A stretch of 51,631 nucleotides of DNA, taken from Minisyncoccota bacterium (lineage in GTDB: Bacteria; Patescibacteriota; Minisyncoccia; Phycocordibacterales; JAQTLZ01). Shown piece after piece: positions 5,846-22,935 of the stretch. The position numbers and the translations under genes were made by a program. Within the stretch, counting starts at the first letter, position 1. Each line of letters starts with the position of its first letter. The notes below the pieces were generated by a model. It made no database searches and was not told where the DNA came from. It saw only the letters and a program-made list of their open reading frames with translations. The DNA is taken from the NCBI GenBank assembly GCA_028710915.1, contig JAQTTF010000001.1, forward strand, positions 1 through 51,631, written 5' to 3'.

Positions 5846-5928
5846 AAACGAAAAACTTCCGCTTTCGCGGAAGTTTTTTGATATTGTTTTTTAGAGAATT
5901 TTCTGTTACCTTTGTAGAGTAATTATAT

Positions 5929-6011
5929 GCGCCGGTCGTATAGCGGCTATTACAGGAGACTGTAAATCTCCCGCCCATTGGGCATCGTTGGTTCGAGTCC
6001 AACCCGGCGCA
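5929..6011 (+). tRNA. tRNA-Tyr (GTA), long variable arm, no encoded CCA
   Basis: Acceptor GCGCCGG/CCGGCGC. Anticodon arm GGAGA-CTGTAAA-TCTCC. T arm GTTGG-TTCGAGT-CCAAC. Discriminator A, followed by CAA. Confidence 0.9.
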
Positions 6012-6058
6012 CAAAGTAAAGAAAGTCTGCACTACTGCAGATTTTCTTACGTTGTGCG
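6007..6058 (+). other. Long imperfect hairpin that includes the last nucleotides of tRNA-Tyr
   Basis: CGCACAAAGTAAAGAAAGTCTGCA-ctac-TGCAGATTTTCTTACGTTGTGCG. The left arm starts inside the acceptor 3' strand. Confidence 0.7.
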
Positions 6059-6101
6059 AGCCGCAGTCATATTTTTTCAGTAGAAAAAATAGACGAGGCA
6101 G

Positions 6102-6146
6102 GGTCGTGAAAATTATTTTGTGACGACAAAATAATTATTCCTGACC
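6102..6146. repeat. GGTC...GACC AT-rich hairpin repeat (copy A)
   Basis: GGTCGTGAAAATTATTTTGT-gacg-ACAAAATAATTATTCCTGACC. A shorter related hairpin lies at 6067-6094 (GTCATATTTTTTC-agta-GAAAAAATAGAC). Confidence 0.65.
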
Positions 6147-6156
6147 ACAAATAAAA

Positions 6157-6200
6157 AACCAATTAGGACACTGGTCGTGTAACGACCGAGATTCCAACCC
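6157..6200 (+). ncRNA. tRNA-linked conserved RNA core motif, copy A (most diverged)
   Basis: AACCAATTAGGACACTG-GGTCG-tgtaa-CGACC-GAGATTCCAACCC. It ends in TCCAACCC, identical to tRNA-Tyr 5998-6005. Confidence 0.5.
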
Positions 6201-6229
6201 ACACAAATTTTTTCTTTTATATAAACAAA

Positions 6230-6260
6230 GAACCGCCGAGAGAAGCGCGGTCGGCGGTTC
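6230..6260 (-). terminator. Rho-independent terminator of the 6284-6982 gene
   Basis: GAACCGCCGA...TCGGCGGTTC stem, followed on the minus strand by TTTGTTT. Confidence 0.65.
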
Positions 6261-6283
6261 TTCGGCGGTAAATCTACATCTTG

Positions 6284-6982
6284 CTATTTCTTTTGGTTCT
6301 CCTTTTCTGGCGGTTTAGAGTTCTTCTCGCGCTCTATTTGTTCTAACGCCCGAGAAAGCGCTCGGAAAAAGGCTTCTTCCTCCTCATGTCCAGCGTTCCG
6401 CTCCCATTGTTCTTCGGCGGCTTTATGGGGGTTTTCAGTCGTAGTCGCCCCTTTGTCTGCTGTTGGGTCATAACCCAAGACCTCGACGACCCTCTTATGC
6501 TGTTCATCGTCCCGTTTGAGATCCTCTTTGAGTGCCTCGTCAGCACGCTCCATAGCCTCCTTGGCCTTGCGGAGCGTCTCGACTGTCTTCTCATCATATG
6601 TCTGAAGCCCCTTTTCAAGCTCCGCTATAAATTGGGGGCTGGGCTCCATCCCCATTTCTTTCATGCCCTTTTTGTACGCTGCAACAACTTCAAGGTCATC
6701 CTTCGCCTCGGTTATCTTCCCACATGCCGTGACAAATTTTGTACACAGCTTTTCTGTCTCCGCCGCGGATTTTTCCAGACTATCCACGCGCTTTTGCAAC
6801 TTCTCGATGGTCGCCTTCTGCTCCGCAATCAGGGCATCATCAACGGCGATTTTCTGCCGCTGGTGTTCAATGAGTTGCTCTTGAGTCACGGGGACAATCC
6901 CCGCGCCTTGCGGCAAATCATTCGCCAGTGCGATCGCAGAGAACAGCGCCAACACAACGAGAGAAAGATGAGTGAATTTCAC
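6284..6982 (-). CDS. Secreted coiled-coil protein, function unknown (GC-richer than its neighbours)
   Basis: GTG start is preceded by GGAGGG at a 6-nt spacing. Signal peptide is MKFTHLSLVVLALFSAIALA, and the rest is a charged heptad-like sequence. The opposite-strand ORF 6386-7231 is treated as a shadow. Confidence 0.65.
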   Translation of the reverse strand: MKFTHLSLVVLALFSAIALANDLPQGAGIVPVTQEQLIEHQRQKIAVDDALIAEQKATIEKLQKRVDSLEKSAAETEKLCTKFVTACGKITEAKDDLEVVAAYKKGMKEMGMEPSPQFIAELEKGLQTYDEKTVETLRKAKEAMERADEALKEDLKRDDEQHKRVVEVLGYDPTADKGATTTENPHKAAEEQWERNAGHEEEEAFFRALSRALEQIEREKNSKPPEKENQKK

Positions 6983-7142
6983 AAAGAACCCTCCAAAATT
7001 GCTCGAGGACCATTCCTGAGCTATATCATAATGATGTATATATCATATTTTGTCAAGTTTCTGTTTTTACCCCGTTTCCCAGTACAGCGCAAAAAACAAC
7101 AAAAAAATTCCGTGAAAGCAGAATTTTTTTGTTTCGCATTTA

Positions 7143-9833
7143 TTATTTCACCCCCTGACCTTTCCCTACCCGCACATCAGAGACGACACTTTTTTTATCT
7201 CTTCGCCCAACTTTTTTCACTTCAAAAATAAATTCTTTCTCTTTCATACCGACAGAAATAATCCCCCCTCTCATAAGTCCTTTTGAAATCATCAGATTTG
7301 CAACAGGTGTCATAAGCTTGTCTTGAATAAGCCTTTTCAAAGGTCGCGCACCATATTGAGGATTGTAGCCTTCTTTTGCCAAGTAGGTGAGCACCACATC
7401 TTCAACCTCGAGAGAAATTTCTTTTGACAGAAGTCGATCTTTCACTACACCAATCTGAATATCTACAATTTCTTTAATCGCTTCTTCGTTCAAGATATCG
7501 AAGACGATCACATCATCAAGACGATTCAAAAATTCCGGTCGAAAATGATCCTTGAGAGCATTCTGTACTTTTGATTTTATTTCTTGATAATCGCTCTTTG
7601 GATTTCCCGCGTTGAAACCGATCTTCTGCATCTTATCGATATAGCTTGCGCCAATATTTGAGGTCAAGACAATGATCGTATTTTTAAAATTGACCACTCT
7701 TCCCTTTGCATCGGTTAGTCTTCCGTTATCAAGAACTTGGAGAAGAATATTGAATACTTCTGGATGTGCTTTTTCAATTTCGTCAAAGAGAATAATCGAA
7801 TACGGTCGATGTCGAACAAGTTCTGTGATGCCTCCGCCTTCGTCGTAGCCCACATAGCCCGGAGGCGAACCGATAATTTTTGAAACCGAATGCTTCTCCA
7901 TATATTCAGACATATCCACACGGATGAGCGCCTTTTCATCGTCAAACATAAATTTCGCAAGCGCTTTGGTAAGCTCTGTCTTTCCCACTCCGGTAGGACC
8001 AAGGAAAATGAACGAGCCGATAGGACGATTTGGATCTGCAACTCCCACGCGAGAACGCTTTACAGCATCGGAAATTTTTCGTACCGCTTCATCCTGACCC
8101 TTGATTCTTGACTTAAGTTCTTCTTCCATTCGAGCGAGTTTCCCTGCTTCTTCCTCAAGCATTCGGGTAACAGGAATCCCCGTCCATTTTGAGACAATGG
8201 AAGCAATATCATTTTCAACAATTTCTTCTTTGAGAATTCGGCGAGAACTCTGGAGCTTCTTGAGTCTCTTTATTTTCGTTTCAAGTTCTTTTTCAAATTC
8301 CGGAATTTTTCCATAGCGAATTTCTGCAGCTCTAGAAAGATCAGAATGGGCTTCGGCGCTTTCTCCCTCCATACGAAGAGATTCAAGTTCTTTCTTAATA
8401 GTTTTTATTTCAGAAATCGTCTCTTTTTCATTTTTCCATTTGAGTTCGATTTCAGAAGTCTTTTCTTTCAGATCAGCAATTTCTTTCTGAATTTTAGAAA
8501 CGCGGGCCTTTGCCACTTTAGAAGTTTCTGCTTCCTTTTTAAGAGCCTCTTTTTCAATTTCAAGACGCATCACTTTTCGATGGGTCTCTTCGAGTGCCGG
8601 GGGCATATCCTCAAGAGAAATTTTGAGTGAAGATGCGGCTTCATCGATAAGATCAACTGCTTTATCAGGCAAGAATCTATCGCTTATATAACGACTCGAA
8701 AGATTTACAGCAGCAACAATTGCATCATCAGTAATTCGCACCCCGTGGAAAAGCTCATATTTTTCTTTGAGGCCTCGAAGAATGGCGATAGCATCATCGA
8801 TCGAAGGCTCGCTTACGTGTACCGGCTGAAAACGTCTTGTGAGCGCGGGATCTTTCTCGATATGACGCTGATACTCCTTAAGCGTTGTCGCTCCGATTGC
8901 GCGAAGCTCTCCCCGAGCCAAAGCAGGCTTGAGCATATTTGAAGCATCCATAGAACCTTCTGCCGCACCAGCGCCGACAATCGTATGAATTTCATCGATG
9001 AAAAGAATAATTCTTCCTTCCGAACGTTCTACTTCCTTAATGATATTCTTGAGACGCTCTTCAAATTCTCCTCGGTATTTGGTACCCGCAATGAGAGAGC
9101 CGAGATCAAGTGACACAAGCTCGCGATCTTTAAGAGATTCTGGAACATCGCCTAGGGCCATCCTAATAGCGAGTCCTTCAGCAATAGCTGTCTTTCCGAC
9201 TCCGGCTTCGCCGATAAGCATCGGATTATTTTTGGTTCGGCGGGAAAGAATCTGGATAATGCGGGAAATCTCGGTGTCTCGGCCAATAACTGGATCCAAT
9301 TTATTTTCTCTGGCAAGCTTGGTCAAACTTCTGGTGTATTTCGAAAGTGATTTAAATTTCTTTGGCTGATTTACATCGGTAATTTTTGCGGTGCGCAATT
9401 CTTCGAGCACGCGAAGTACTCCCTCTTTTTCGATTCGAAAACGAGAAAGAATTTCCCGGGCGCTTCCCGGCACATCAAGGATAGCGATAAAGAGATGTTC
9501 TGTTGAAACGAATTCGTCTTTCAGTCCGGCAGCAATTTTCGAAGATTTCTCGATTGCTTCAGCAAGCTCTGGAGTAAGATAAATCTGATACGAAGGAGCA
9601 ACAACTGCTCCAGATTCCGGGCCTTCAATCGACTCGATGAGCGAATCTGTAAGAAGAAGGGTGTCAATTTCCAGCTTATCGAGAATAGAGGTAACCATAC
9701 TCTCTTCTTGGAGAAGGAGGGCTGTGAGAAGATGGAGCGGATTTACATGATTTTGTCCGCGTTCAATCGCAAGCTCATGAGCCCTGCGGATCGCCTCCTT
9801 TGCTTTTGTGGTGAAATGGTTGAATGGGGGCAT
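7143..9833 (-). CDS. clpB: ATP-dependent chaperone ClpB
   Basis: 896 aa. Has a Clp N domain, two AAA+ modules (GEAGVGKT and GPTGVGKT), a long coiled-coil M domain, and the sensor motif GARPLKR. Confidence 0.95.
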
Positions 9834-13585: not shown

Positions 13586-13912
13586 ATGGCTGAATTTCGA
13601 GACGAAAAAATCATAGCGATCATTAAAGAAGCCGGCGCACAATTTCTGGCGCAGGAATCAACTCGTGCTTCCCTTCTCACTGTTACTAAAGTAGATCTCT
13701 CAACAGATGGGAAACGAGCAATAATTTACTTCACTGCTTTCCCTACCGACAAAGAGGAAACGGCGCTTCTCTTTGCAAAGCGAAAGCGAAAAGATTTTCA
13801 AGAATTTATGCGCGAGAAAACAAGCCTCGGACGAATGCCCTTATTTGATTTTGCAATTGATGAAGGAGAGAAGAATCGCCAGAAGATCGACTCCTTATCG
13901 CAAAAAATCTAA
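13586..13912 (+). CDS. rbfA: Ribosome-binding factor A
   Basis: 108 aa, located immediately after infB. Has the RbfA-like pattern (LLTVTKVDLSTDGKRAIIYF). Confidence 0.75.
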   Translation: MAEFRDEKIIAIIKEAGAQFLAQESTRASLLTVTKVDLSTDGKRAIIYFTAFPTDKEETALLFAKRKRKDFQEFMREKTSLGRMPLFDFAIDEGEKNRQKIDSLSQKI

Positions 13913-13944
13913 AAAATGTTACACTAAACGAGTCGTATTTATAC

Positions 13945-14019
13945 GGCCACGTAGCCAAGTGGTAAGGCAGAGATCTGCAAAATCTCTATGCGGCGGTTCA
14001 ATTCCGCCCGTGGCCTCCA
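13945..14019 (+). tRNA. tRNA-Cys (GCA), CCA encoded
   Basis: Acceptor GGCCACG/CGTGGCC. Anticodon arm GAGAT-CTGCAAA-ATCTC. T arm GGCGG-TTCAATT-CCGCC. Ends in TCCA. Confidence 0.9.
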
Positions 14020-14023
14020 TAAT

Positions 14024-14113
14024 GCCCGGGTGGCGAAATTGGTAGACGCAGAGGACTTAAAATCCTCGGCCCTTTAAAAAGGCATGTGGGTTCGATTCCC
14101 ACCCCGGGCACCA
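14024..14113 (+). tRNA. tRNA-Leu (TAA), CCA encoded
   Basis: Acceptor GCCCGGG/CCCGGGC. Anticodon arm GAGGA-CTTAAAA-TCCTC. Long variable arm. T arm GTGGG-TTCGATT-CCCAC. Lies 4 nt after tRNA-Cys. Confidence 0.9.
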
Positions 14114-14149
14114 ATGAAAAGAAGTACCTTGGGTACTTCTTTTCATTGG
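14111..14149 (+). other. Long hairpin starting at the CCA of tRNA-Leu(TAA)
   Basis: CCAATGAAAAGAAGTACC-ttg-GGTACTTCTTTTCATTGG. Confidence 0.75.
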
Positions 14150-14151
14150 CT

Positions 14152-14164
14152 GGTGGGAATCGAA
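14152..14164 (+). other. 13-nt block perfectly antisense to the T arm of the preceding tRNA-Leu(TAA)
   Basis: GGTGGGAATCGAA is the exact reverse complement of TTCGATTCCCACC at 14091-14103. Confidence 0.8.
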
Positions 14165-14191
14165 AGACGGAAGCGCTTGGCGCTGAGTCGG

Positions 14192-14228
14192 GGTCGCGGA
14201 ATTTTTCAGTAGAAAAATATCCGTGACC
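14192..14228. repeat. GGTC...GACC AT-rich hairpin repeat (copy B1)
   Basis: GGTCGCGGAATTTTTC-agta-GAAAAATATCCGTGACC. Confidence 0.7.
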
Positions 14229-14254
14229 GATTCCCATTTCGAAGACTAAAGGGG

Positions 14255-14299
14255 AAACCAATCGGGGTACTGACCCTGTAAGGGTCGATATCTTTCCCC
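14255..14299 (+). ncRNA. tRNA-linked conserved RNA core motif, copy B
   Basis: AAACCAATCGGGGTACTG-GACCC-tgtaa-GGGTC-GATATCTTTCCCC. AATCGG (14260-14265) can pair with CCGATT (14227-14232). Confidence 0.6.
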
Positions 14300-14360
14300 C
14301 TATGAGTTTGTCAGAACACTTTTTTTCTGTTATTGTTTTTGAGTTTCCAGGATTTGTCAT

Positions 14361-14405
14361 GGTCAGGAATAATTTCAATTCCGTCGAATTGAAATTTCCC
14401 CGACC
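14361..14405. repeat. GGTC...GACC AT-rich hairpin repeat (copy B2)
   Basis: GGTCAGGAATAATTTCAATTC-cgtc-GAATTGAAATTTCCCCGACC. Its left arm matches the reverse complement of the right arm of copy A. Confidence 0.7.
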
Positions 14406-14496
14406 CGGCCTCACCTATTTTTCTTGTTAGAAAAATATGGTTCCGGCTTGCACAAGTCCACAAAAACTTAAAGCAGTTTAAGTTTTTGAGCATTAT

Positions 14497-14569
14497 GCAC
14501 CCATAGCTCAGCTGGTAGAGCAGATCCCTCTTAAGGATAAGGTCGTAGGTTCGATCCCTACTGGGTGCA
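14497..14569 (+). tRNA. tRNA-Lys (CTT), no encoded CCA
   Basis: Acceptor GCACCCA/TGGGTGC. Anticodon loop CTCTTAA. T arm GTAGG-TTCGATC-CCTAC. Discriminator A, followed by CAA. Confidence 0.85.
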
Positions 14570-14614
14570 CAACTTTGAAAAATCTTCACTGCTGAAGATT
14601 TTTCAAAGTTGTGC
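14567..14614 (+). other. Long hairpin that includes the last 3 nt of tRNA-Lys
   Basis: GCACAACTTTGAAAAATCTTCA-ctgc-TGAAGATTTTTCAAAGTTGTGC, a perfect 22-bp stem. Confidence 0.8.
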
Positions 14615-14658
14615 AAGACGGAGGTATGTTTTGCGAGTACGCAAAACAACCGAGTCGG

Positions 14659-14703
14659 GGTCGCGAAAATTTTTACTCGACGGAGTAAAAATTATTTGTG
14701 ACC
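14659..14703. repeat. GGTC...GACC AT-rich hairpin repeat (copy C)
   Basis: GGTCGCGAAAATTTTTACTC-gacg-GAGTAAAAATTATTTGTGACC. Confidence 0.7.
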
Positions 14704-14710
14704 ACAACAA

Positions 14711-14751
14711 AAAATCCAATCGGGATACTGTTCTCGTAGAGAAAGATTCCC
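14711..14751 (+). ncRNA. tRNA-linked conserved RNA core motif, copy C
   Basis: AAAATCCAATCGGGATACTG-TTCTC-gta-GAGAA-AGATTCCC. Confidence 0.6.
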
Positions 14752-14785
14752 AGGTGGACGCACCGAGTAAAACAACATCATAAAT

Positions 14786-14867
14786 GCCGGGGTGGCGAAA
14801 TTGGCAGACGCACTTGCCTTAGGAGCAAGCGGAGTAATCCATGGAGGTTCAAGTCCTCTCCCCGGCA
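14786..14867 (+). tRNA. tRNA-Leu (TAG), no encoded CCA
   Basis: Acceptor GCCGGGG/CCCCGGC. Anticodon arm CTTGC-CTTAGGA-GCAAG. Long variable arm. T arm GGAGG-TTCAAGT-CCTCT. Confidence 0.9.
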
Positions 14868-14912
14868 CAAATTAAAAAACTAGCACTTAAGTGCTAGTTT
14901 TTTAATTTGTGC
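14865..14912 (+). other. Long hairpin that includes the last 3 nt of tRNA-Leu(TAG)
   Basis: GCACAAATTAAAAAACTAGCAC-ttaa-GTGCTAGTTTTTTAATTTGTGC, a perfect 22-bp stem. A second hairpin lies at 14917-14938 (GTAAGTGCC-aaaa-GGCACTTAC). Confidence 0.8.
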
Positions 14913-14940
14913 GGGAGTAAGTGCCAAAAGGCACTTACGT

Positions 14941-15093
14941 GAGAGGACTTGAAGCCCGATTGAGCATTTTTTCTAGCTCTACCAAGCGAAGAAAAAATCC
15001 AATCGGGGTACTGCTCCTGTAAGGAGAAAGATTCTCCTTCCGATCGACAAGAAGATCGAAAAGTACCGGGCGTAGCCGACAAGTCCTCTCCCG
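14941..15093 (+). ncRNA. tRNA-linked structured element, copy D (closed domain containing the core motif at 14994-15038)
   Basis: GAGAGGACTTGAA (14941-14953) is the exact antisense of tRNA T arm 14848-14860. GAGAGGACTTG also pairs with CAAGTCCTCTC at 15080-15090. Inner helices are CCCGATTG/CAATCGGG (14955-62/15000-07) and ATTTTTTCT/AGAAAAAAT (14966-74/14990-98). The core reads AAAATCCAATCGGGGTACTG-CTCC-tgtaa-GGAG-AAAGATTCTCC. Confidence 0.6.
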
Positions 15094-15169
15094 CTTTCTA
15101 CTGCCCAGTCAACAACTCCTTTTCCTATTCTATCCTTAAACCAAGCCACCAAATCGAGTATTCTCTAGG

Positions 15170-15198
15170 TTGACAAATGCTTGTTTATATGATAGTAT
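15170..15198 (+). promoter_or_regulatory. Sigma-70-type promoter for the 15292 gene
   Basis: TTGACA (15170-15175), a 17-nt spacer, then TAGTAT (15193-15198). Confidence 0.5.
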
Positions 15199-15291
15199 AC
15201 AGGTAGAGGAGTCGTGTGATTCCTGCTTGTACATTCAAATCGTCATTACCGGGTTTGAAAAACCCAGAAACCAAACGGAGGCAAGAAGATC

Positions 15292-16116
15292 ATGGAGACT
15301 TTGCTGGATGTCTTGGGTATCATCGCTCTTGTGCTGTTCATCCTGACAGTATTGGGTGTGATAGACAAAGAGAGCTGGAAACAGTTCGGAGGGTGGGCAT
15401 GGGCAAAGACCCCCCCGATTGCGCGATGGGCGCTGTTCGCGGTCATAATCATCGGCCTTTACGGGCTCTGCGCGTTCAATGGCACTTACGAGAGGTTGTC
15501 ATGGGATGCCAGAACTCGAATCTTCTTCTTCTTACTATCGATACCAATTGCTTTCATAATTGGTAGCGCTGGTAGCGGAGCAGGAGCGCCGGCAGGACAC
15601 GGCGGGCATGGAGGAGGACACGGCGGCGGAGGGAGCAACAAAAATTGGGCACTCATCCTCCTTGCACTGGGGGTCGTCATTGTTGCGTGGATGGGGGTGG
15701 TTAACGCCCCTGGAATTGTGCAGGCAGTGAACCCTACTACGGTAAGCCCCAAAAAAGCGGCCGGTCAGAAAGCAAGCGCTGGGAACACAACACAAGTTAT
15801 AGTTTCCCAGAAGCCGCCGGAAGGTCCAGAAAATATGGCTCCAGTCCCAGTCGAGCCGGGAACAATGAGTGAAGTGTTTCCTGTCTCTACGAAAGACATC
15901 ATGTATTGGATTTATCTCCACAAGCGCTCCGACAATGGCCACGTATCCCTCATTCTATACAATGGGAAGTGGACCAAAAGCGGCAAGTATGTTGCTGATC
16001 TGAGCCACAAGGAAGTCTGCGACTCGGGTAGCGCTGAATTTCCAAGACTACCTTTCGTACAATTAGATAATACGAAGGGGAGAGGAAGTGTGGACCTGGG
16101 GTGGAACAAAAACTGA
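15292..16116 (+). CDS. Multi-TM membrane protein with a Gly/His-rich loop, function unknown (GC-rich island)
   Basis: GGAGG lies 10 nt upstream of the ATG. About 4 TM helices, the loop GSGAGAPAGHGGHGGGHGGGGSN, and a soluble C-terminal domain of about 130 aa. Confidence 0.6.
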   Translation: METLLDVLGIIALVLFILTVLGVIDKESWKQFGGWAWAKTPPIARWALFAVIIIGLYGLCAFNGTYERLSWDARTRIFFFLLSIPIAFIIGSAGSGAGAPAGHGGHGGGHGGGGSNKNWALILLALGVVIVAWMGVVNAPGIVQAVNPTTVSPKKAAGQKASAGNTTQVIVSQKPPEGPENMAPVPVEPGTMSEVFPVSTKDIMYWIYLHKRSDNGHVSLILYNGKWTKSGKYVADLSHKEVCDSGSAEFPRLPFVQLDNTKGRGSVDLGWNKN

Positions 16117-17538: not shown

Positions 17539-18441
17539 TTATAATTGATTAATAGTGTTTTGAATAATTGCAGAGAGCGCTGTTGCCCCCAAAAGCACGG
17601 CGGCACCGACAACCGTCCAAAGAAATGCTCTTTTCGCTGTTTCCAATTCCTCGCTGTTGCCCTGCGCTTTTACAAAAAGGAATCCAGAATAAATAATTGC
17701 AAGCACAATAATAATCGCTCCAATTTGTTCTGCGATCTTCAAAATCTTTGCAAAAAGCTGATAGAGATCACAGGTATTCCCAAGAGGATTTTTAAGTCCA
17801 CCAGAACTATCACACCCTTTTCCACTGTTTGGTCCTTGCTGAAGGAGACCTGCACTATTTGGTCCTTGCTGAAGCAAGCCTGGATCTGTTGTGTCATTCG
17901 CTGCAGGTGGTACCACATTCGTCGGAGCTGGAGTCGGAGCGGCCGCATTATTTATTGAAGAAAGAGGAGCGTAAGATCCTGAACTGCCGTTTCCGACCAA
18001 AATACCGCTGAGATCAAAATTGAAGAGAAATCCGGTAGTTGATGAATTGGGGTAATACGGCTTTAGCTTATTATTTATTGTAACAATATCCACAGAAGTA
18101 CACTGTCGGCAGGAGCCTCCGGCCACCCCAGAATTATTGATTGACTGAACGCACGCAGCATTTGTAGGAAAAGCATTCACTGCTTTTTTGTCTTTTCCTA
18201 TTGCACACCAGACAGTACAGGTACCGCAGATATTCCATGACGGGTCTCTCCCCTGCGTACAAGCAGGTCCTGAAGCAAAAACATGCACCACATCACTCGG
18301 ATCTTTCGAACACCATGTGGCCGCAAAAGCAGAGGTAGCTCCTAATGTAAAAAACAAAGCAAAAAGAAAAATTGCAAACAAAAAATGAGACTTGCGACCA
18401 AGCGTAGTTTTAATGTTCTTCTCTTTTTTTACAGTATTCAT
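17539..18441 (-). CDS. Pilin-like paralog 4 with a Cys-rich ectodomain of about 200 aa
   Basis: C-terminal module IIYSGFLFVKAQGNSEELETAKRAFLWTVVGAAVLLGATAL. The N-terminal region has 11 Cys. The ATG at 18441 (MNTVKKEK...) avoids overlap with the upstream gene. The ORF is open to 18498. Confidence 0.6.
   Translation of the reverse strand: MNTVKKEKNIKTTLGRKSHFLFAIFLFALFFTLGATSAFAATWCSKDPSDVVHVFASGPACTQGRDPSWNICGTCTVWCAIGKDKKAVNAFPTNAACVQSINNSGVAGGSCRQCTSVDIVTINNKLKPYYPNSSTTGFLFNFDLSGILVGNGSSGSYAPLSSINNAAAPTPAPTNVVPPAANDTTDPGLLQQGPNSAGLLQQGPNSGKGCDSSGGLKNPLGNTCDLYQLFAKILKIAEQIGAIIIVLAIIYSGFLFVKAQGNSEELETAKRAFLWTVVGAAVLLGATALSAIIQNTINQL
17828..17887 (-). repeat. Two tandem 30-nt units encoding GLLQQGPNS twice
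   Basis: TTTGGTCCTTGCTGAAG is exact at 17828 and at 17858. Confidence 0.8.
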
Positions 18442-18457
18442 TTTTTCTTTTTTAAGA

Positions 18458-19594
18458 TTATCCAAAAATACCTTTGAAAAACTCCGGATCTGCCACAAGA
18501 CCTTTAATGATCGTATTCACCAGAAGCCACGCGCAAAGCATAATAATAATTCCAATGAGAGCGCTCCAAAAGATTTGATGAGCCTCTTCTATTTTCCCAG
18601 GATTCCCGCCTGCGGTCAAATAGAGAAAACCGGCAAAAAAGAAAGCAACGGCGGCAATCGAGACAGCGACTTTAAGAAGAAAGCCGATGATATTGCCGAT
18701 AAGATTAAGAAATTGCTGGAAACCACAATTGCTATAGGCGGTTTGATTTGTAGCATCAATAGTAACAGTGCCGTCACAGGAAACCAGTCCGCTCGGGTTT
18801 GTGCTGGAAGTCGGATTTCCATTATTGCCATTTCCTCCGCCCTTAGGCTGAGTTGGGGATTGAGGGTTAGTGGGTGTTGGCGATGGATTTGCTGAGGAGT
18901 TACAAGCAGTATCGGAAAACCTGCAAGCTCCTCCGGGAACATTATTGGTTTGAATATAAGACTGACATACCTGCATAAATGAACTCTTTTCATCAACAGT
19001 AGAATATTTCGATTCTTTAAAAGGTTTCCCATTCGAATCCATACAGACATATCCAGAAACAGGAGCTGGAGTGGGTGTTGGAGTTGGAGCAACACAATCA
19101 GTATCAGAGAGTGTGCAAGTACCTCCGGATATATTATTAGTCTGAATATATGTTTGACACTGTTGCATGCCAGTATTTTTCTCCTGCTCACTTGCATAAT
19201 GCAATTTCTTCAGAAGAGTTGTACTGGAGTTCATACAAATCCAACCCGACACAGGTACAGGAGTTGGAGTGGGAGTTGGTGTGGGTGTGGGAGGAATAGT
19301 AGCAGAACAGCTGCATTTCCATTGTGCTACTCCCCTTTCTTGAGCAACCCCCGGAACATCGTTACTACAAGCTTCTCCCTGATCGAAATCTTGCCCAACC
19401 GTATGAAATATATATGTCTTCGCAACAACAGTGGAACCATCACAAGTAAGACTCCAGTAGCCTTCTTCTGGCGTGTTCGGATCCGTAGTAGCTTTCACTC
19501 CCGTCGTCGGTAAAAAATAGAAAGATACTCCCAAGGCTATTGCAATAGCAATAATATAGAAAGGAAACCTTTTTGAAGATAAAAAATTGAACAT
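18458..19594 (-). CDS. Pilin-like paralog 5 with a large Cys-rich, TP-linker modular ectodomain
   Basis: 378 aa. C-terminal module FFFAGFLYLTAGGNPGKIEEAHQIFWSALIGIIIMLCAWLLVN. Two ectodomain modules of about 63 aa are joined by (TP)n linkers. Confidence 0.7.
   Translation of the reverse strand: MFNFLSSKRFPFYIIAIAIALGVSFYFLPTTGVKATTDPNTPEEGYWSLTCDGSTVVAKTYIFHTVGQDFDQGEACSNDVPGVAQERGVAQWKCSCSATIPPTPTPTPTPTPVPVSGWICMNSSTTLLKKLHYASEQEKNTGMQQCQTYIQTNNISGGTCTLSDTDCVAPTPTPTPAPVSGYVCMDSNGKPFKESKYSTVDEKSSFMQVCQSYIQTNNVPGGACRFSDTACNSSANPSPTPTNPQSPTQPKGGGNGNNGNPTSSTNPSGLVSCDGTVTIDATNQTAYSNCGFQQFLNLIGNIIGFLLKVAVSIAAVAFFFAGFLYLTAGGNPGKIEEAHQIFWSALIGIIIMLCAWLLVNTIIKGLVADPEFFKGIFG
18875..19255 (-). repeat. 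Tandem duplication of a Cys module of about 63 aa inside paralog 5
   Basis: PVSGWICMNSS..QQCQTYIQTNNISGGTCTLSDTDC aligns with PVSGYVCMDSN..MQVCQSYIQTNNVPGGACRFSDTAC. Confidence 0.8.
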
Positions 19595-19603
19595 TATCTA
19601 AAA

Positions 19604-20878
19604 TTATTGGCTAAATAACTGCTGGATCTGCTGGCTTGCTTGGCCGATCGCATCGGCATACTTTTCCTGTCCCGAAGAAACTGTTTCAATCATGCGCTGG
19701 AAAATACTCTGTGTTTCGGTAGGATTTGGATCAAACCAAGCTCGAGAACGCAACGCTGAAGAATAAAGAACGGGGCTAAGTGGATCGGAAGGCGGTGTTG
19801 AGAGAAGATCAAGACGAACTGGAGGCAAACCGCTCACTTGTGAGAAACTCCTTATGACATCCTGTGAAGTAAGGTACGTAATCATAGAAAGCGCGCTCGT
19901 ATAATTCGGCGACGTTTTCAAAATTGCCAACCCAAACATCCTGGCAAAGGTCATTTTTGTTGAAGCATCTTTAGGCTGGGGCATTTCTGCCATATCGAGA
20001 TTTAGGTTGGGATTCTTTGCCCGCAGCGCTGAAAGTTCTGAAGCAAAGCCGAAATAAAGAGCGAGCTTCCCGGATGCAAAATAATCAAAAGAAGCAGGAA
20101 GCGAACGATTCCATGTGTATGCCTCGTTAGTCGGATTCCCAAACTGGCTATAGAAACGCAAGGCAGTATCTGCTGAATTCCCCGATGAATCCATGACTGA
20201 AGACCAGCCTATTTGAGTCTGTTGTGTAATTGGGTTCCCCGACTGAATAAGAAGAGTCGCAAGAATTTCTTTTGCATTGGAAACATTTCTAAATTCTCCC
20301 ATTGCCACAGCGCTTTGCAAAATTACAGACTCATTATTTTTCTGCGTGAGTGTCTTTGTAAATGTGATAAAATCGCTCCAATTTTTCGGCGGCACTGCCA
20401 CAGAAGCATTCGTCAGAAGGTCGCGATTCCAATACATAACCATGGGATCAATAACAAAAGGCAAAGCAAGAATGCCATCAGTTGTTATGTACATATTTCC
20501 TTCTTGTACGAATGTGTCTTGAAAAGTTCTCTGAGAGAGCGTAGTGAATGGTATTTGAGCAATCTTTTCAGCATGTCGGTAAATTTTATCTTGCGCTAGA
20601 AGAAAGATGTCCGGCCCGTGTCCAGTTGCGATAGCTTCAGCAAGATCAGTATCGAATGTCGCCTCGTCTCTCTGAACATAGCTTACTTTCAGCTGATCAG
20701 GCTTGCCTTGATTTAAATTTGTAAGGAGTGCATCAAATGTGGTTTGCGGAATCGTGCCCCAGATTACAACAGGAGCGATTGCGCTCCCGTTCGGAGCTCG
20801 CACAATTGCGAATGTAAGCACGCCGACAATTGCGAAGAAAATAAGAATTCCAATAAAGACGATTTGAAAATTAGACAT
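19604..20878 (-). CDS. Membrane-anchored extracellular solute-binding protein (ABC family 1-like)
   Basis: 424 aa. N-terminal TM helix, then a periplasmic-binding-protein-like sequence (VVIWGTIP, MVMYWNRDLL). No permease or ATPase gene is adjacent. Confidence 0.55.
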   Translation of the reverse strand: MSNFQIVFIGILIFFAIVGVLTFAIVRAPNGSAIAPVVIWGTIPQTTFDALLTNLNQGKPDQLKVSYVQRDEATFDTDLAEAIATGHGPDIFLLAQDKIYRHAEKIAQIPFTTLSQRTFQDTFVQEGNMYITTDGILALPFVIDPMVMYWNRDLLTNASVAVPPKNWSDFITFTKTLTQKNNESVILQSAVAMGEFRNVSNAKEILATLLIQSGNPITQQTQIGWSSVMDSSGNSADTALRFYSQFGNPTNEAYTWNRSLPASFDYFASGKLALYFGFASELSALRAKNPNLNLDMAEMPQPKDASTKMTFARMFGLAILKTSPNYTSALSMITYLTSQDVIRSFSQVSGLPPVRLDLLSTPPSDPLSPVLYSSALRSRAWFDPNPTETQSIFQRMIETVSSGQEKYADAIGQASQQIQQLFSQ

Positions 20879-20880
20879 GC

Positions 20881-21408
20881 TTATTTTTTAAAGATAAAAC
20901 CATAATGATGGTCTCCTGCCCGAATCTGGGTCTGAAATATAAAACCCGACTTTTCAAAAAGGGCTCGCGCCTTAACTCCCGGGAAAACACTATCGAATGA
21001 AGGACCCATCCCTCCAAAAGAATCCGTCCAATCGATAACAAGCGCCCGCCCGCCCGGCTTTAATATCCTCTTCGCTTCAGTTACCACGGCTTCTTTTGGG
21101 CCAATCTGAAAAAGAATATTTGAAATGACAACAGCATCGACAGTATCTCCCCGCAAATGAGTGCCTCCCGGTTTTTCTACATCCGCCCAAATAATTTCGA
21201 TATTGGTAAAACCGCGTTTGTTCCCCTCATTTTTAATTTTTGAAAGAAGATCCTTTTGAACATCGATCGCATACACCTTCCCCGCCCCACCGACAGCTTT
21301 TGCGATTTCAAAAGCATAAAAACCGGTGCCTGCACCAAAATCGGCAACTTTTGCTCCAGATTGAAGTCCAAATTGCTCTATATTATGTTCTGGATCTGTA
21401 AAGGCCAT
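20881..21408 (-). CDS. Class I SAM-dependent methyltransferase
   Basis: Motif I is VADFGAGTGFYAFEIA, plus the acidic motif YAIDV. The ATG at 21408 (MAFTDPEHN) is preferred over 21450. Confidence 0.7.
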   Translation of the reverse strand: MAFTDPEHNIEQFGLQSGAKVADFGAGTGFYAFEIAKAVGGAGKVYAIDVQKDLLSKIKNEGNKRGFTNIEIIWADVEKPGGTHLRGDTVDAVVISNILFQIGPKEAVVTEAKRILKPGGRALVIDWTDSFGGMGPSFDSVFPGVKARALFEKSGFIFQTQIRAGDHHYGFIFKK

Positions 21409-21479
21409 AGAAATGAATCCTCTATAGTATACAACAAAACAACCCCGCATTTTCAGGGGGCTGTGGAGAAAATGAGCGA

Positions 21480-21971
21480 TTAACGCGTGACAGTTATTTT
21501 CTCTCCTAGTTCTGCATACGGAGCCGAAATAGTAATTCGTGTCGTGGTTGCGTCCTTCTGGATAACATATCCGCTTTCGTAATCTGAAGCCGTATTAAAA
21601 TATGCCCTGTTAGAATCTGGATCAATCGGGAGTGAAGGAAGATACGTCGGAACGAGACAAGCATTGATATCAAATGCGTCTTCAGCCGATGTGCTTGAAG
21701 CTATCGTCATTGGAGTACTCGTGGAAATATTTTGAGAACACACTGTATCTCCTGCAAGTCGAAATACTCCTTTGTTGTCTGCAATTCTCTGGCCAACGGC
21801 ATTTAAAATCTCATTCACATTACTTTGTCGCTGTAGATTTCTTGCTTGAGCAAATTGCCGGGAAGGATTTATAGCGATAAGCACAATTCCAGCGAGAATT
21901 GCAATGATGCCGATGACGACGAGAATTTCTACCAAGGTAAAACCACTTGTGTTCGTTATTTTTCTTTTCAT
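21480..21971 (-). CDS. Type IV pilin (prepilin N-terminal cleavage/methylation domain)
   Basis: N-terminus is MKRKITNTSGFTLVEILVVIGIIAILAGIVLIAI. 163 aa. Confidence 0.85.
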   Translation of the reverse strand: MKRKITNTSGFTLVEILVVIGIIAILAGIVLIAINPSRQFAQARNLQRQSNVNEILNAVGQRIADNKGVFRLAGDTVCSQNISTSTPMTIASSTSAEDAFDINACLVPTYLPSLPIDPDSNRAYFNTASDYESGYVIQKDATTTRITISAPYAELGEKITVTR

Positions 21972-22010
21972 AGAGCGCTCGAAATGAATGTTAACTATTA
22001 TTCCACACTT

Positions 22011-22475
22011 TTACGGCAATGAACAGCTGCGAGAAGTGGGAGTAGGAAGTTCCTCAAAAGACAGGATCGACATATTTGATGAGTTTAGAAGAGCTTTGAG
22101 ATTTGTATGCGACGATGAAACGACAGCTCTGGTCTCCAAATGTATCGTGCCGACTGAAAAACCTATAGGACAAATCTTGCAGGAATCTTCACCTTGGAAA
22201 ATGGTTTCGCCTCCCGAATATGTCTTGTCTTCAAGAAGGTTCATCCGCGCCGTATCAAGGCACACTTCAGCAAGAAATTCGCTTCGTTTCTTATTTTCAG
22301 AATCTAAAATATTGAAACGGGTAAAAAATGAGCTCATATTGAGAGAGAGGAGGATCGCAAGAAGTACGGCGGAAATAAGAATTACAGATACCAGCGCGAT
22401 GAACCCGCCGGAATTTTTCTTGGAAAAATTCCGGCCGCCGAATCTATTTTCTTTTGTACATTTTTCACCTGACAT
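22011..22475 (-). CDS. PilX-like minor pilin / pilus assembly protein
   Basis: Hydrophobic N-terminal segment GGFIALVSVILISAVLLAILLSL. It lies within the pilin operon and overlaps the upstream gene by 11 nt. Confidence 0.55.
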   Translation of the reverse strand: MSGEKCTKENRFGGRNFSKKNSGGFIALVSVILISAVLLAILLSLNMSSFFTRFNILDSENKKRSEFLAEVCLDTARMNLLEDKTYSGGETIFQGEDSCKICPIGFSVGTIHLETRAVVSSSHTNLKALLNSSNMSILSFEELPTPTSRSCSLP

Positions 22476-22935
22476 AATATGTAGTTGTTATAAAGCGATT
22501 TCCTATTTGCAAAACAACAAGAACCCCAGCTGGACTGCCAGACATTACAGGAGGAATATAGGAAAAAGAAATGGAATCTATTTTTACCAATTCATCATTA
22601 AGCGGAACTGGTTTCATATTTCCCCGAGAAAACACAAGAAGACCATCCTGCAAATGTAAGGTCAGAGGATTTTGCGAAGAATTATATTTACGGACAGAAA
22701 GGGTGCTCGAGGCAAGAGATGTCGAAGGAGTATTGATATTAGAAACACCGATGAGTATCCAGTCGATCTTTCGAGAAAGGAAATTTAATTCCTCGTCTAC
22801 GGCAATGCTTTGACTTTGCTTTGAAGAAGATTCGATAAGATCATACGATACAGTAAGAACTCCCCCCAAAAGAAGTGATAAGAGAGCTATATATACTATG
22901 GTTTCGATTAGTGTAAATCCATTATTCTTTCTCAT
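22465..22935 (-). CDS. Minor pilin (prepilin-type N-terminus)
   Basis: MRKNNGFTLIETIVYIALLSLLLGGV. Confidence 0.75.
   Translation of the reverse strand: MRKNNGFTLIETIVYIALLSLLLGGVLTVSYDLIESSSKQSQSIAVDEELNFLSRKIDWILIGVSNINTPSTSLASSTLSVRKYNSSQNPLTLHLQDGLLVFSRGNMKPVPLNDELVKIDSISFSYIPPVMSGSPAGVLVVLQIGNRFITTTYYVR

Follow-up and report, generated by a model that had tools for sequence, protein, structure and literature searches.

Gene-less cassettes carrying sense and antisense copies of the adjacent tRNA 3´ end are found behind tRNA genes in Paceibacteria-type Patescibacteria

Genomic islands and prophages integrate into the 3´ ends of tRNA and tmRNA genes by means of tyrosine integrases, and both att-flanked remnants and tandem accretion are known for such elements. 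Sublocation classes of integration in tRNA and tmRNA genes were reportedly distinguished by Williams in 2002, and the CIMEs of Streptococcus are an example of non-autonomous remnants of the tRNA-integrating type. Folded single-stranded recombination sites are represented by the attC sites of integrons and the attP hairpin of the CTX phage. Among RNAs linked to tRNAs are the tRNA-miRNA units of gammaherpesvirus 68, the mascRNA of MALAT1 and the 3´ external transcribed spacers of E. coli tRNA operons, while the Drum, ROOL and GOLLD motifs are structured RNAs found near tRNAs. The primer-binding sites of LTR retroelements are complementary to the tRNA 3´ end. A further example of such islands is reportedly provided by the ssrA islands of Dehalococcoides (PMC3146451).

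The window analysed here, a stretch of 51,631 nucleotides, belongs to a Patescibacteria (Paceibacteria-type) chromosome and contains five non-coding cassettes of 130–230 nt, named copies A to E. The earlier note on this DNA had counted four, overlooking copy E on the minus strand (about 14350–14487). The copies are about 60% identical to one another, and no credible ORF was found inside them. The layout comprises four parts, situated just 3´ of a tRNA gene and on the strand of the tRNA gene directly 5´ of the cassette: a terminator-like hairpin (H1); a block antisense to the tRNA from position 54 to about position 73, covering the T-loop, the T-stem and the 3´ strand of the acceptor (X´); a conserved junction core, of which there are at least two main types with modules in common; and a repeat, in direct orientation, of the 3´ end of the tRNA, from the T-loop to 1–2 nt past the discriminator (X2). 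In type 1 cassettes, X´ is split by a conserved hairpin, H2.

All of the window features described below are on the plus strand, except copy E, and the tRNA hosts were identified by ARAGORN and the Rfam tRNA model. Copy A follows tRNA-Tyr(GUA) (5929–6012; 53.6 bits in Rfam). Its H1 (6013–6052; fold z = −7.4) has an A/T-rich stem of about 17 bp, whose base extends into the tRNA 3´ end through pairing of GCACA with TGTGC. The acceptor-antisense TGTGCG (6053–6058) and the type 2 core (GCCGCAG-hairpin-CGAGGCAGGGTCGTG-hairpin-CCTGACC) reach to 6146, as recognized by alignment with B, C and E and from members of the same family elsewhere. The 3´ module (6159–6205) comprises CCAATTAGGACACTG and a 5-bp hairpin with a GTA loop (6174–6186), gives a weak match to the family covariance model R1 (15 bits) and includes GATTCCAACCCACACA, a degenerate sense copy of the 3´ end of tRNA-Tyr in which TCCAACCC occupies 6193–6200. 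Copy B follows tRNA-Leu(UAA) (14024–14113), and its H1, predicted by folding (CCAATGAAAAGAAGTACC/GGTACTTCTTTTCATTGG; 14111–14149), takes in the encoded CCA. The X´ block TGGTGGGAATCGAA (14151–14164) complements the T-loop and the 3´ strand of the T-stem, and the type 2 core (AGACGGAAG-hairpin-CTGAGTCGGGGTCGCGG-hairpin-CCGTGAC) is closed by the sense copy CGATTCCCA at 14228–14236 (14165–14236 in all). The 3´ module (14258–14299; model R1, 36 bits, E = 1.8e-7) consists of CCAATCGGGGTACTG, the hairpin ACCCTGTAAGGGT and a decayed sense copy, CGATATCTTTCCCC.

Copy E (14350–14487, minus strand), of type 2, abuts the 5´ end of tRNA-Lys, has its own H1-like hairpin (14462–14487) and is devoid of the CCAAT...ACTG module; it was recognized by alignment with A, B, C and L039, a locus of a relative that contains a motif match, and by its fold (z = −6.7). 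Copy C (14571–14763; fold z = −9.1; model R1, 23 bits) follows tRNA-Lys(CUU) (14497–14570) and consists of H1 (14571–14610), the acceptor-antisense TGTGCA (14610–14615), a type 2 core (14616–14703), CCAATCGGGATACTG (14716–14730), the hairpin TTCTCGTAGAGAA (14731–14743) and a decayed sense copy, AGATTCCCAGGTGGACGCAC (14744–14763). Copy D, behind tRNA-Leu(UAG) (14786–14868), opens with a predicted H1 (AAATTAAAAAACTAGCAC/GTGCTAGTTTTTTAATTT; 14869–14908) that shows compensatory changes relative to L039. Its split X´ (14909–14953) is formed by an acceptor part, GTGCGGGAG (14909–14917), the H2 insert (14918–14939) and a T part, GAGAGGACTTGAA (14941–14953). The type 1 core (14954–15026; model R1, 73.9 bits, E = 1.3e-17; covariation over 90 sequences) contains stem Pa (CCCGATTG with CAATCGGG), which bears Pv, an A/T-rich hairpin whose internal loop is GA-rich, followed by GTACTG and hairpin Pb (CTCCTGTAAGGAG). 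Copy D ends (15027–15094) in two sense repeats of the 3´ end of its tRNA with a small hairpin between them, the proximal one being decayed (AAAGATTCTCCTTCC; 15027–15041) and the distal one reading CAAGTCCTCTCCCGC (15080–15094).

The matches from which the earlier note had started were confirmed at their coordinates. The block GGTGGGAATCGAA (14152–14164) is the exact reverse complement of 14091–14103 in tRNA-Leu(UAA), and GAGAGGACTTGAA that of 14848–14860 in tRNA-Leu(UAG); 15080–15093 agrees with 14850–14863 at 13 of 14 positions, while 14228–14236 is identical to 14093–14101, and 6193–6200 to 5998–6005 of tRNA-Tyr. When the 300 nt downstream of each tRNA were shuffled 1000 times, neither of the two 13-nt antisense matches was reached in any shuffle (0/1000), nor was the length of the 13-nt sense match after tRNA-Leu(UAG) (0/1000). 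Two shorter sense matches, one of 9 nt behind tRNA-Leu(UAA) (p = 0.011) and one of 8 nt behind tRNA-Tyr (p = 0.045), carry little weight when taken alone and gain credibility from the family pattern. Long antisense blocks are present in copies B and D, but nothing comparable follows tRNA-Lys (copy C) and just 6 nt follow tRNA-Tyr (copy A). The sense match CGATTCCCA in copy B is now understood as the 3´ boundary of the type 2 core (GTGAC|CGATTCC), as in other genomes.

More than 120 copies of the cassette were detected in about 100 Patescibacteria assemblies by pattern scan and covariance model, behind nearly every tRNA isotype, and the family is conserved across several orders. A scan with the core motif, using one genome per species, yielded 117 loci, nearly all of them in Patescibacteria; for 79 matches, a tRNA on the same strand ends 68–185 nt upstream, with at least 17 isotypes represented. 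The covariance model R1 gave 125 hits (E ≤ 1e-3) in 100 loci, and 19 of the 25 hits outside the seed are likewise behind a tRNA. It gave no hits in L001, L002 and the non-Patescibacteria loci. Among the other tRNAs in the same loci, 51 of 111 bear sense or antisense copies with other cores, and in the loci examined a cassette stands behind about two-thirds of tRNA genes. The cassette is a common unannotated feature of a large and poorly understood bacterial lineage, for which more than 120 aligned examples and a working covariance model are now available as a resource.

Searches in existing collections returned nothing of this kind. The core-pattern scan of viral contigs gave nine hits, all attributable to chance (no tRNA, anchor or hairpin), and blastn of copy D found no match in phage and plasmid collections. 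At the gathering score, Rfam 15 detected only tRNAs in the whole window, and at E ≤ 10 over 13800–15300 nothing was added beyond chance-level hairpin hits. Rfam covers Drum, self-cleaving ribozymes, T-box, tmRNA and group II intron domains, none of which matched a cassette of the window. The literature search retrieved no description of such cassettes, and the family is apparently undescribed until now.

Both flanks of the cassette follow the adjacent tRNA. The longest sense match between an element and its own tRNA averages 13.9 nt, against 6.1 nt with other tRNAs, and the corresponding antisense values are 10.6 and 6.2 nt. A comparison proposed in the earlier note, between the antisense block and the T arm of the adjacent tRNA across isotypes, shows that the block tracks its tRNA in the 70 elements compared: X´ is Watson–Crick complementary to tRNA positions 54–62 in at least 96% of them, and the X´/tRNA pairs add up to 766 Watson–Crick, 19 G–U and 55 mismatches. 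Wherever the tRNA and X2 disagree, X´ agrees with the tRNA 32 times and with X2 twice. X2, comprising the last 16–22 nt of the tRNA, is a general feature of the family and is perfect from C56 to 1–2 nt past the discriminator in 19 of 70 copies, while in many others it is decayed or truncated, often abruptly. Of the 70 elements, 33 contain an acceptor-like 5´ block, and the H2 insert (20–26 nt) occurs generally and at a fixed position, the acceptor/T junction.

This tracking speaks for a cis-acting RNA switch, in which X´ would invade the T-arm and acceptor 3´ strand in a read-through transcript, forming with H1 a long hairpin that blocks or marks the tRNA, and X2 would compete for X´, free the tRNA and tune its maturation or turnover. 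X´ follows the T-stem changes, and both the X´–tRNA and X´–X2 pairings are thermodynamically possible. In predicted minimum-free-energy folds of the precursors, X´ pairs with the tRNA in copy D and with X2 in copies B and C, where the cloverleaf is kept. Furthermore, type 2 copies outside the window have a near-perfect palindrome, its arms as long as 19 nt, that is made up of the 3´ end of the tRNA together with H1 and X´. The pairing of copy D with its downstream decoy, as described in the earlier note, is present in the minimum-free-energy fold of the element alone (GCGGGAG with CUCCCGC and GAGAGGACUUG with CAAGUCCUCUC). However, the tRNA would already be folded tens of nucleotides before X´ is synthesized, the same tRNAs work without the element in relatives, copies A and C of the window have almost no antisense T block, and many copies retain only a truncated or decayed decoy. 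Moreover, a terminator-like H1 often stands ahead of X´, and a switch offers no account of the direct repeat, the arrays or the conserved junction core. We consider it improbable.

With regard to H1, by a crude count 32 of 64 scored regions fold at −8 kcal/mol or below, and 18 of these have a T-run of at least four. About half of the scorable H1 hairpins thus look like intrinsic terminators, as judged from predicted folding, and these would lie upstream of X´. A consensus terminator scan did not flag H1, because the T-run is inside the stem. The cassettes can confound the annotation of terminators as well as that of tRNAs.

The junction core adopts a conserved fold. In the alignment of 90 sequences, 86.5% of cells are paired, against 71.7% after shuffling, and the covariation score of 0.399 (0.156 after shuffling) was reached by none of 500 shuffles, with slid controls at or below 0.148. 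Four core helices covary across about 100 genomes of several orders, and the core has invariant unpaired positions; the junction nucleotides GAAG, RUACUG, the GUA loop and CGA are invariant. Stem Pa contains 55 G–U pairs and only 3 A–C pairs and therefore folds on the tRNA-sense strand. The minimum-free-energy z-scores of the window copies range from −6.7 to −10.7. Covariation and strand asymmetry are compatible with either RNA or single-stranded DNA.

These data bear on the proposal that the cassettes are functionless DNA by-products, in which terminator hairpins would have been extended by template switching into palindromes, the direct copies would be left over from old recombination events and gene conversion would have spread the core as a repeat. 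Template switching would keep X´ matched to the tRNA automatically, and the excess of Watson–Crick over G–U pairs between them is predicted by copying or correction, while selection for an RNA helix need not produce it. The decay and truncation of X2 and the fast turnover of H1 with compensatory changes, observed between the window and L039, also agree with this proposal. Nevertheless, by-products would not be expected to have invariant unpaired positions and four covarying helices over such a phylogenetic range, and neutral repeats are unlikely to persist in this manner in streamlined genomes of 0.6–1 Mb. In addition, the conserved H2 breaks X´ at a fixed position, and palindrome correction would tend to erase it. 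We regard this explanation as very improbable.

Occupancy and cassette type differ at orthologous tRNAs. The earlier note had suggested comparing such loci in relatives, and these were found to be empty, filled or filled with another type. Gene order in L002 is as in the window, with every tRNA site empty. L039 is 82% identical to the window over the whole aligned region, and the spacers are largely identical; nevertheless, the tRNA-Cys site is filled in L039 and empty in the window, while the tRNA-Leu(UAA) site is empty in L039 and filled in the window, the T-arm allele being different. At tRNA-Lys, L039 has another core type, and one T-stem pair and X´ are altered together. The 5´ strand of the T-stem, upstream of the repeat, is also altered between the window and L039, and homologous allele replacement therefore fits better than a crossover at the T-loop. 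The same tRNA cluster was compared in 10 loci, where occupancy varies. Arrays and perfect tandem copies occur outside the window, and in the L102 locus two copies 97% identical flank a 5.6-kb defence island with a restriction-modification-like pair and a CBASS-like pair, in which no mobility gene was seen; as there, the cassettes mark hot spots of cargo insertion. They probably break assemblies too: the L001 contig ends within the tRNA just upstream of the position of copy B in the window.

We propose that the cassette is borne by recombination and uses the tRNA 3´ end as an insertion or homology site, a reading to which we give an even chance. The cassette would be a selfish or semi-selfish insertion unit, entering, leaving and being exchanged by recombination at the tRNA 3´ end. 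This could proceed by Campbell-type or site-specific recombination at the segment from the T-loop to the 3´ end, or by DNA uptake followed by homologous recombination anchored at the tRNA. By both routes, X2 would stay as an att-like direct repeat and the tRNA would remain intact. X´ and the copy of the tRNA end would form a stem closing the folded core, so that the element would display a duplex copy of its own target. This fold might arise in RNA transcribed from the tRNA promoter, whether by read-through or as part of an operon, or else in single-stranded DNA, and would be required for the propagation or processing of the element. If mobile, a gene-less cassette would colonize essential genes harmlessly and re-target itself to each tRNA. 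The earlier suggestion of att-like duplications around a miniature element is upheld in its main lines by the direct copies, variable sites and arrays, but plain integration scars do not describe an interior that is a deeply conserved, covarying fold.

It is further conceivable, although somewhat doubtful, that the cassettes make up a class of gene-less mobile elements of viroid size, structured as RNA or as single-stranded DNA, specific to Patescibacteria, re-targetable to any tRNA and able to carry cargo such as defence islands between copies. The core would then be the active part, whether as a small ribozyme or as a scaffold on which a recombinase or reverse transcriptase acts in trans, and X´ a guide that picks tRNA genes at the segment from the T-loop to the 3´ end.

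In favour of the recombination-borne cassette proposed above, Pv/Pb variants are common to copies on different tRNAs of the same genome (identity 0.78, against 0.64 between genomes); this similarity within genomes could instead be due to gene conversion. No near-identical pair of copies on two different tRNAs, which would prove recent transposition, was found, and no excised form was seen. No gene for a recombinase, reverse transcriptase or nuclease was found in or adjoining the elements, and Pfam detected none among 20 window ORFs. Against mobility, the near-perfect Watson–Crick tracking of the tRNA by an X´ split by H2 goes beyond any simple insertion chemistry, and, against selfishness, an RNA useful to the host would account equally well for invariant nucleotides that are unpaired and for covariation that runs deep across orders.

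Such an RNA would come from a host gene co-transcribed with the tRNA or inside a tRNA operon, in which X´ and X2 would form a minihelix resembling the acceptor and T-stem; it would be excised and finished as a stable RNA by RNase P, RNase Z or the CCA-adding enzyme, and its core would act in trans, for example by binding a protein, by diverting enzymes or toxins aimed at tRNAs as a decoy, or by catalysis. Its spread over tRNAs and the similarity within genomes would result from duplication and gene conversion. Covariation, invariant junction nucleotides and G–U/A–C asymmetry on the tRNA-sense strand are all consistent with this idea, as are the constant agreement between the strands of element and tRNA and the conservation over several orders. 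Elements occupy inter-tRNA gaps in clusters; the interval from tRNA-Lys to tRNA-Leu measures 215 nt, of which copy C takes up about 190, so that little space remains for separate promoters. The acceptor-like 5´ block, the H2 insert at the acceptor/T junction, the tRNA genes without encoded CCA and the right boundary of X2 at 1–2 nt past the discriminator point in the same direction. However, X2 is truncated or decayed in many copies, and the acceptor-like helix is therefore often unable to form; X´ tracks the tRNA rather than X2 at disagreements; close relatives have no element, or one of another type, at the same tRNA; and around half of the scorable H1 hairpins are stable and terminator-like, upstream of the core. 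We consider such a gene rather unlikely; if it exists, it would add a new RNA class to the tRNA biology of minimal-genome organisms.

In comparison with the known systems, the recombination-borne cassette that we favour shares several traits with tRNA-integrating islands and prophages: a tRNA 3´ segment repeated directly from the T-loop to the gene 3´ end with the tRNA left intact (perfectly so in the 19 copies mentioned), sites that are empty in relatives (all those of L002, as well as tRNA-Cys and tRNA-Leu(UAA) between L039 and the window), tandem arrays behind one tRNA and, as in islands, cargo between two copies (L102). Unlike them, the cassette is only 130–230 nt long, has no gene, and contains an antisense copy of the target and a conserved, covarying single-strand fold. 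Cassettes are present behind about two-thirds of the tRNA genes examined, of nearly all isotypes, and no integrase or recombinase was found inside them (no credible ORF), among 20 window ORFs or in the L102 island.

Similarities with attC and the CTX attP include structure conserved over sequence, a strand-specific fold, cassette-like units in arrays, an imperfect palindrome with a variable terminal hairpin (here H1) and an extrahelical insert (H2), and a hairpin that rebuilds a duplex copy of the target. In contrast, each cassette takes its arms from a different tRNA and carries a conserved junction core in addition; an integron integrase and an attI context are missing, as are the GTTRRRY/RYYYAAC boxes, the T-loop reading GTTCRAN. 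An identity with attC was rejected, the R''/L''-L'/R' boxes and intI being absent by inspection and the elements being dispersed behind tRNAs, and the fold with a variable tip is an analogy. As with tRNA-linked RNAs, the cassettes are directly downstream of a tRNA, on the same strand, strongly structured and possibly provided with tRNA-like ends, but they match no Rfam family even at E ≤ 10 and show turnover of presence and type. To our knowledge, none of those RNAs bears both sense and antisense copies of the neighbouring tRNA, and none undergoes such turnover.

An LTR primer-binding site similarly lies inside a repeated element and offers 18–20 nt of complementarity to the 3´ portion of one specific tRNA. 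However, the complementarity of the cassette follows the gene past the discriminator into H1, rather than the added CCA, and X´ spans the whole T-loop to position 54 with the H2 interruption, in the absence of LTRs and reverse transcriptase. This identity was discarded, as X´ covers positions 54–73 and genomic sequence and has no complementarity to CCA. A MITE or other non-autonomous DNA transposon was rejected on the grounds that the sole inverted repeat is copied from the target tRNA, the repeat is 16–22 nt of tRNA and the window copies are about 60% identical. For RNA-guided elements (IS110 bridge RNA, IS200/IS605 omega RNA), no recombinase, TnpB or IscB was present beside the window copies and no HEARO or IS605-type Rfam hit was obtained. 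An intron-containing, split or permuted tRNA was dismissed because an intact contiguous tRNA precedes each element.

Finally, some details of the core were inspected. By eye, hammerhead, hairpin, twister and pistol cores did not match, in agreement with Rfam. The search for tertiary pairs by mutual information gave one possible pair, G78–C92, which would extend Pb, and no other. A kink-turn in the GA-rich loop of Pv (UGAG/CGAA) was rejected, as there is no 3-nt bulge and the loop is a plain tandem G–A loop. A T-loop motif was considered for Pb, but its closing pair covaries between U–A and C–G, and the loop is therefore a simple GUA triloop.

Five tRNA genes are called in the window, all confirmed by Rfam: tRNA-Tyr (5929-6012), tRNA-Cys (13945-14019), tRNA-Leu(UAA) (14024-14113), tRNA-Lys (14497-14570) and tRNA-Leu(UAG) (14786-14868). 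The earlier note had reported that pieces of the tRNA 3´ part recur downstream in both orientations, and all its coordinates proved exact when checked against the sequence. Positions 14152-14164 are the exact reverse complement of 14091-14103 in tRNA-Leu(UAA), as are 14941-14953 of 14848-14860 in tRNA-Leu(UAG). In the sense orientation, 15080-15093 matches 14850-14863 at 13 of 14 positions, 14228-14236 is identical to 14093-14101, and 6193-6200 is identical to 5998-6005 of tRNA-Tyr. When the 300 nt downstream of each tRNA were shuffled 1000 times, no shuffle equalled the three 13-nt matches (two antisense, one sense); the 9-nt (p = 0.011) and 8-nt (p = 0.045) sense matches are weak taken alone. 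No antisense T block was found within 300 nt downstream of tRNA-Lys, and tRNA-Cys lacks any copy because the next tRNA lies only 4 nt away.

Directly 3´ of the other four tRNAs lie related stretches of 190-230 nt, copies A (Tyr), B (Leu-UAA), C (Lys) and D (Leu-UAG), whose folds reach z values of -7.4 to -10.7 against shuffled sequence. No ORF accounting for them was found, and the motif CCAATCGGGGTACTG (up to three mismatches) occurs three times in the window versus 0.65 expected. A fifth copy, E (approximately 14350-14487, minus strand), has its own H1-like hairpin and abuts the 5´ end of tRNA-Lys, which is thus bracketed by the inverted elements E and C. Rfam returned no family for the cassette stretches even at E ≤ 10, which leaves them outside its families, Drum and the small ribozymes included.

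The association of tRNA ends with antisense and sense copies is general. A pattern scan for CCAATYRGGRYACTGNNNNNGTAR, using one genome per species, matched at least 117 loci, and nearly all of those listed are Patescibacteria MAGs (Paceibacterota, Kaiser-, Taylor-, Nomura- and Zambryskibacteria, Parcubacteria, and many labelled 'Saccharibacteria'). The few matches in other phyla have neither hairpin nor tRNA and were treated as chance. At least 79 matches have a same-strand tRNA ending 68-185 nt upstream, and the host isotypes among the listed matches are Pro, Arg, Leu, Met, Gly, Lys, Ser, Asn, Tyr, Asp, Val, His, Glu, Gln, Trp, Phe and Ile. With 90 cores as its seed, a covariance model scored 73.9 bits for D, 36 for B, 23 for C and 15 for A, and gave 125 matches in 100 loci at E ≤ 1e-3; at this threshold, none fell in L001 or L002, two relatives of the window, or in loci from outside Patescibacteria. 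Among the matches not used as seeds, 19/25 follow a tRNA of the same strand at a distance below 400 nt and carry matching antisense and sense blocks. A further 51 of the 111 other tRNAs in these loci are followed by copies on other cores, either sense (11 nt or longer) or antisense (10 nt or longer); such elements thus accompany about two thirds of the tRNA genes observed at these loci. The cassette is a real, widespread feature and, to the extent checked, undescribed: no published description was found in the literature, and no copy in viral, phage or plasmid collections. At one of these loci (L077, 7127-7200), ARAGORN calls a tRNA with anticodon UUA ('tRNA-Stop'), with a 15-nt sense and a 12-nt antisense copy downstream; in a Patescibacteria MAG this could be a suppressor or a miscall.

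The flanks of the cassette follow the adjacent tRNA. The longest exact sense match averages 13.9 nt to the element's own tRNA versus 6.1 nt to other tRNAs, and the longest antisense match 10.6 versus 6.2 nt. The earlier note had proposed asking whether the antisense blocks covary with the T arm of their neighbour, and they do: over 70 elements, the antisense block X´ and the tRNA form 766 Watson-Crick pairs and 19 G-U pairs, with 55 mismatches. Positions 54-62 of the tRNA, among them T-stem residues and the variable positions 59 and 60 of the loop, are Watson-Crick complementary to X´ in 67-70 of the 70 elements, and the match weakens over positions 63-65. At sites where X2, the direct copy of the tRNA 3´ end, departs from the tRNA in gapped alignment, X´ pairs with the tRNA alone in 32 cases, with X2 alone in two and with both in 15. 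X2 is perfect to the tRNA end in 19/70 elements, and in many copies the match stops abruptly. In a type 1 subfamily, 2 nt (AT or AC) are recurrently inserted where the core meets X2 (CGAA-AT-TCC...); the insertion is seen behind many different tRNAs at many loci (for example L015, L035, L045, L058 and L101), and copies in one genome tend to share it.

Three core types can be distinguished. Type 1, comprising copy D and most matches, begins after the tRNA with H1, often a terminator-like A-tract/T-tract stem and in some copies a small GA-motif hairpin instead. This is followed by the acceptor-antisense block (at least 7/8 positions matching in 33/70 elements), the 20-26 nt hairpin H2 with conserved flanks GAGAAAG...CTTTCGTG, and a block joining the T-stem 5´ strand to the complement of the T-loop (...GGAATCGAA), then a G. 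Next come the Pa 5´ strand (CCCGATTG), AG, Pv, the Pa 3´ strand (CAATYGGG), RUACUG, Pb and CGA; Pv is an A/T-rich stem with a small tip and a tandem G-A loop (UGAG/CGAA), and Pb has a stem of 5 bp and the loop GUA. The tRNA copy comes last, starting in the T-loop and extending 1-2 nt beyond the discriminator. Type 2, to which copies A, B, C and E belong, continues after X´ with AGMCGGAG-hairpin-CGAGKCGGGGTCGCGAG-hairpin-CTYGTGAC and CGANTCC...; its antisense block, as seen in other genomes, is contiguous and perfect up to 19 nt. Copies A and C have a type 1 3´ module appended to the type 2 core, and the module of B has decayed. Type 3 retains Pv, UACYG and Pb with the Pa sequence replaced, indicating that the family is modular.

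The core fold is supported by covariation. In an alignment of 90 cores, a four-helix model pairs 86.5% of cells versus 71.7% after shuffling, and its covariation score of 0.399 (versus 0.156) was reached in 0/500 shuffles; sliding the 3´ partners by 1-3 columns lowers it to 0.148 or less. Pb is 98.9% paired, with 5/5 pairs changing on both sides, and in Pa, pair 18-70 alternates between C-G and U-A and pair 19-69 is mostly G-U (51 sequences) or G-C (36). Many unpaired positions are invariant (including GAAG, AG, UACUG, GUA and CGA), an invariance partly imposed by the search pattern, although GAAGCCCGATTGAG, outside that pattern, is nearly invariant too. The tRNA end, H1 and X´ form a palindrome, and the unit might be a by-product of palindromes or repeats with no function; beside the covarying core, we regard this as highly improbable. 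Since G-U pairs far outnumber A-C pairs in Pa (55 versus 3), the fold is that of the tRNA-sense strand, whether RNA or single-stranded DNA. Read as RNA, it could be a processed non-coding RNA with a tRNA handle, which we consider rather unlikely. The Pa stem (CCCGAUUG with CAAUCGGG; alignment columns 16-23, 65-72 and 8-12) contains the T-loop CGAUU and its complement, which could give X´, both Pa strands and X2 two alternative pairing registers; the feature is absent from type 3 cores. When full precursors are folded to minimum free energy, B and C retain the cloverleaf, with X´ paired to X2, and in D X´ is paired to the tRNA; both states are thus accessible. A cis RNA switch, one of two readings in the earlier note, would draw on these states; it appears improbable to us, the elements being as changeable between relatives as follows.

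In L002 (IF-2 66% identical to that of the window, same gene order), tRNA-Tyr, Cys, Leu(UAA), Lys and Leu(UAG) have short ordinary trailers and no element. The locus L039 is from a close relative, 82% identical over the whole aligned region, with the spacers flanking tRNA-Lys and element D largely identical. Copy E is kept there, and D is common to both, its H1 showing compensatory changes. L039 has an element at the tRNA-Cys site, where the window has 4 nt, and its tRNA-Leu(UAA) runs directly into the sequence found after element B in the window, with T-arm allele GCCGG/CCGGC versus GTGGG/CCCAC. Behind tRNA-Lys, it has a type-1-like element versus the type 2 composite of the window, one T-stem pair and X´ having changed together. 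The T-stem 5´ strand, upstream of the repeat, also differs between the two, so homologous exchange of the tRNA 3´ part plus cassette seems a better fit than a crossover restricted to the T-loop. Ten loci have the same Cys-Leu-Lys-Leu cluster, and among them occupancy and type vary freely. A 138-nt unit is perfectly duplicated in tandem in L007 (1991-2270), and in the arrays of L105 (approximately 5880-6300) and L115 (approximately 275-640) one tRNA is followed by two to three units that differ in core type, each repeating the tRNA 3´ end and each with a different H1. Copies on different tRNAs of the same genome have Pv and Pb variants in common (mean Pv identity 0.78 within versus 0.64 between genomes). 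Together, these patterns indicate that units are gained, lost, replaced and spread among tRNAs. In L102, element copies 97% identical (1255-1405 and 7052-7202) flank a 5.6-kb island (1442-7038) with 132-nt terminal inverted repeats, encoding a LexA-fused C5 DNA methylase, a 413-aa ORF that is possibly its restriction partner, and a CBASS-like SMODS cyclase with a SLATT 2TM effector; no recombinase was seen in it. The closest relative, L001 (IF-2 88% identical), has at 7640-7828 a partial 5´ tRNA-Cys duplicate approximately 100 nt upstream of the intact gene. Its contig ends inside tRNA-Leu(UAA), the tRNA preceding element B in the window, and the elements may fragment assemblies.

The other reading in the earlier note, integration scars, is supported in outline by the direct repeat, empty sites and arrays, and is an incomplete account. 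These three features are shared with tRNA-integrating islands; those islands, however, are defined by an integrase, whereas the cassette is non-coding and has none. The cassette falls outside the definitions of MITEs, integron attC sites, retroelement primer-binding sites and RNA-guided IS elements. The best-supported reading, to which we give an even chance, is that it is an insertion unit without genes for which the tRNA 3´ end serves as a recombination or homology site. Insertion at that end would leave X2 as an att-like repeat and the tRNA intact, and X´ and the tRNA-end copy, by closing the core, would present a duplex copy of the element's own target. Re-specification of X´ and X2 for a new tRNA might occur by gene conversion of interiors, by template-switch correction of the tRNA end-H1-X´ palindrome or by a copying step upon insertion. 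Conservatively, the cassette is filed as a tRNA-3´-end-associated insertion element; that it represents a categorically new, tRNA-guided mobile cassette structured as RNA or single strand is a tentative and somewhat doubtful proposal.

The window is otherwise an ordinary Patescibacteria chromosome, with ClpB, a short IF-2 of 500 aa, NifS, TypA and type IV pilus genes among the housekeeping functions it encodes, and the best relatives of its IF-2 are named Parcubacteria, Paceibacter, Taylorbacteria or Patescibacteria. The ORF just upstream of tRNA-Tyr (4769-5845, 358 aa) has no Pfam or NCBIfam match and a proline/threonine-rich 3´ end (read at 5700-5845); the ORFs flanking elements D (15292-16116) and A (6284-6982) have no family match either. 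A T4SS-pilin-like gene cluster with type II/IV secretion ATPase (T2SSE) and platform (T2SSF) genes occupies 17539-27323. Pilus/DNA-uptake machinery of this type is common in these bacteria, and its only relevance here would be as a possible transformation route for cassette acquisition.
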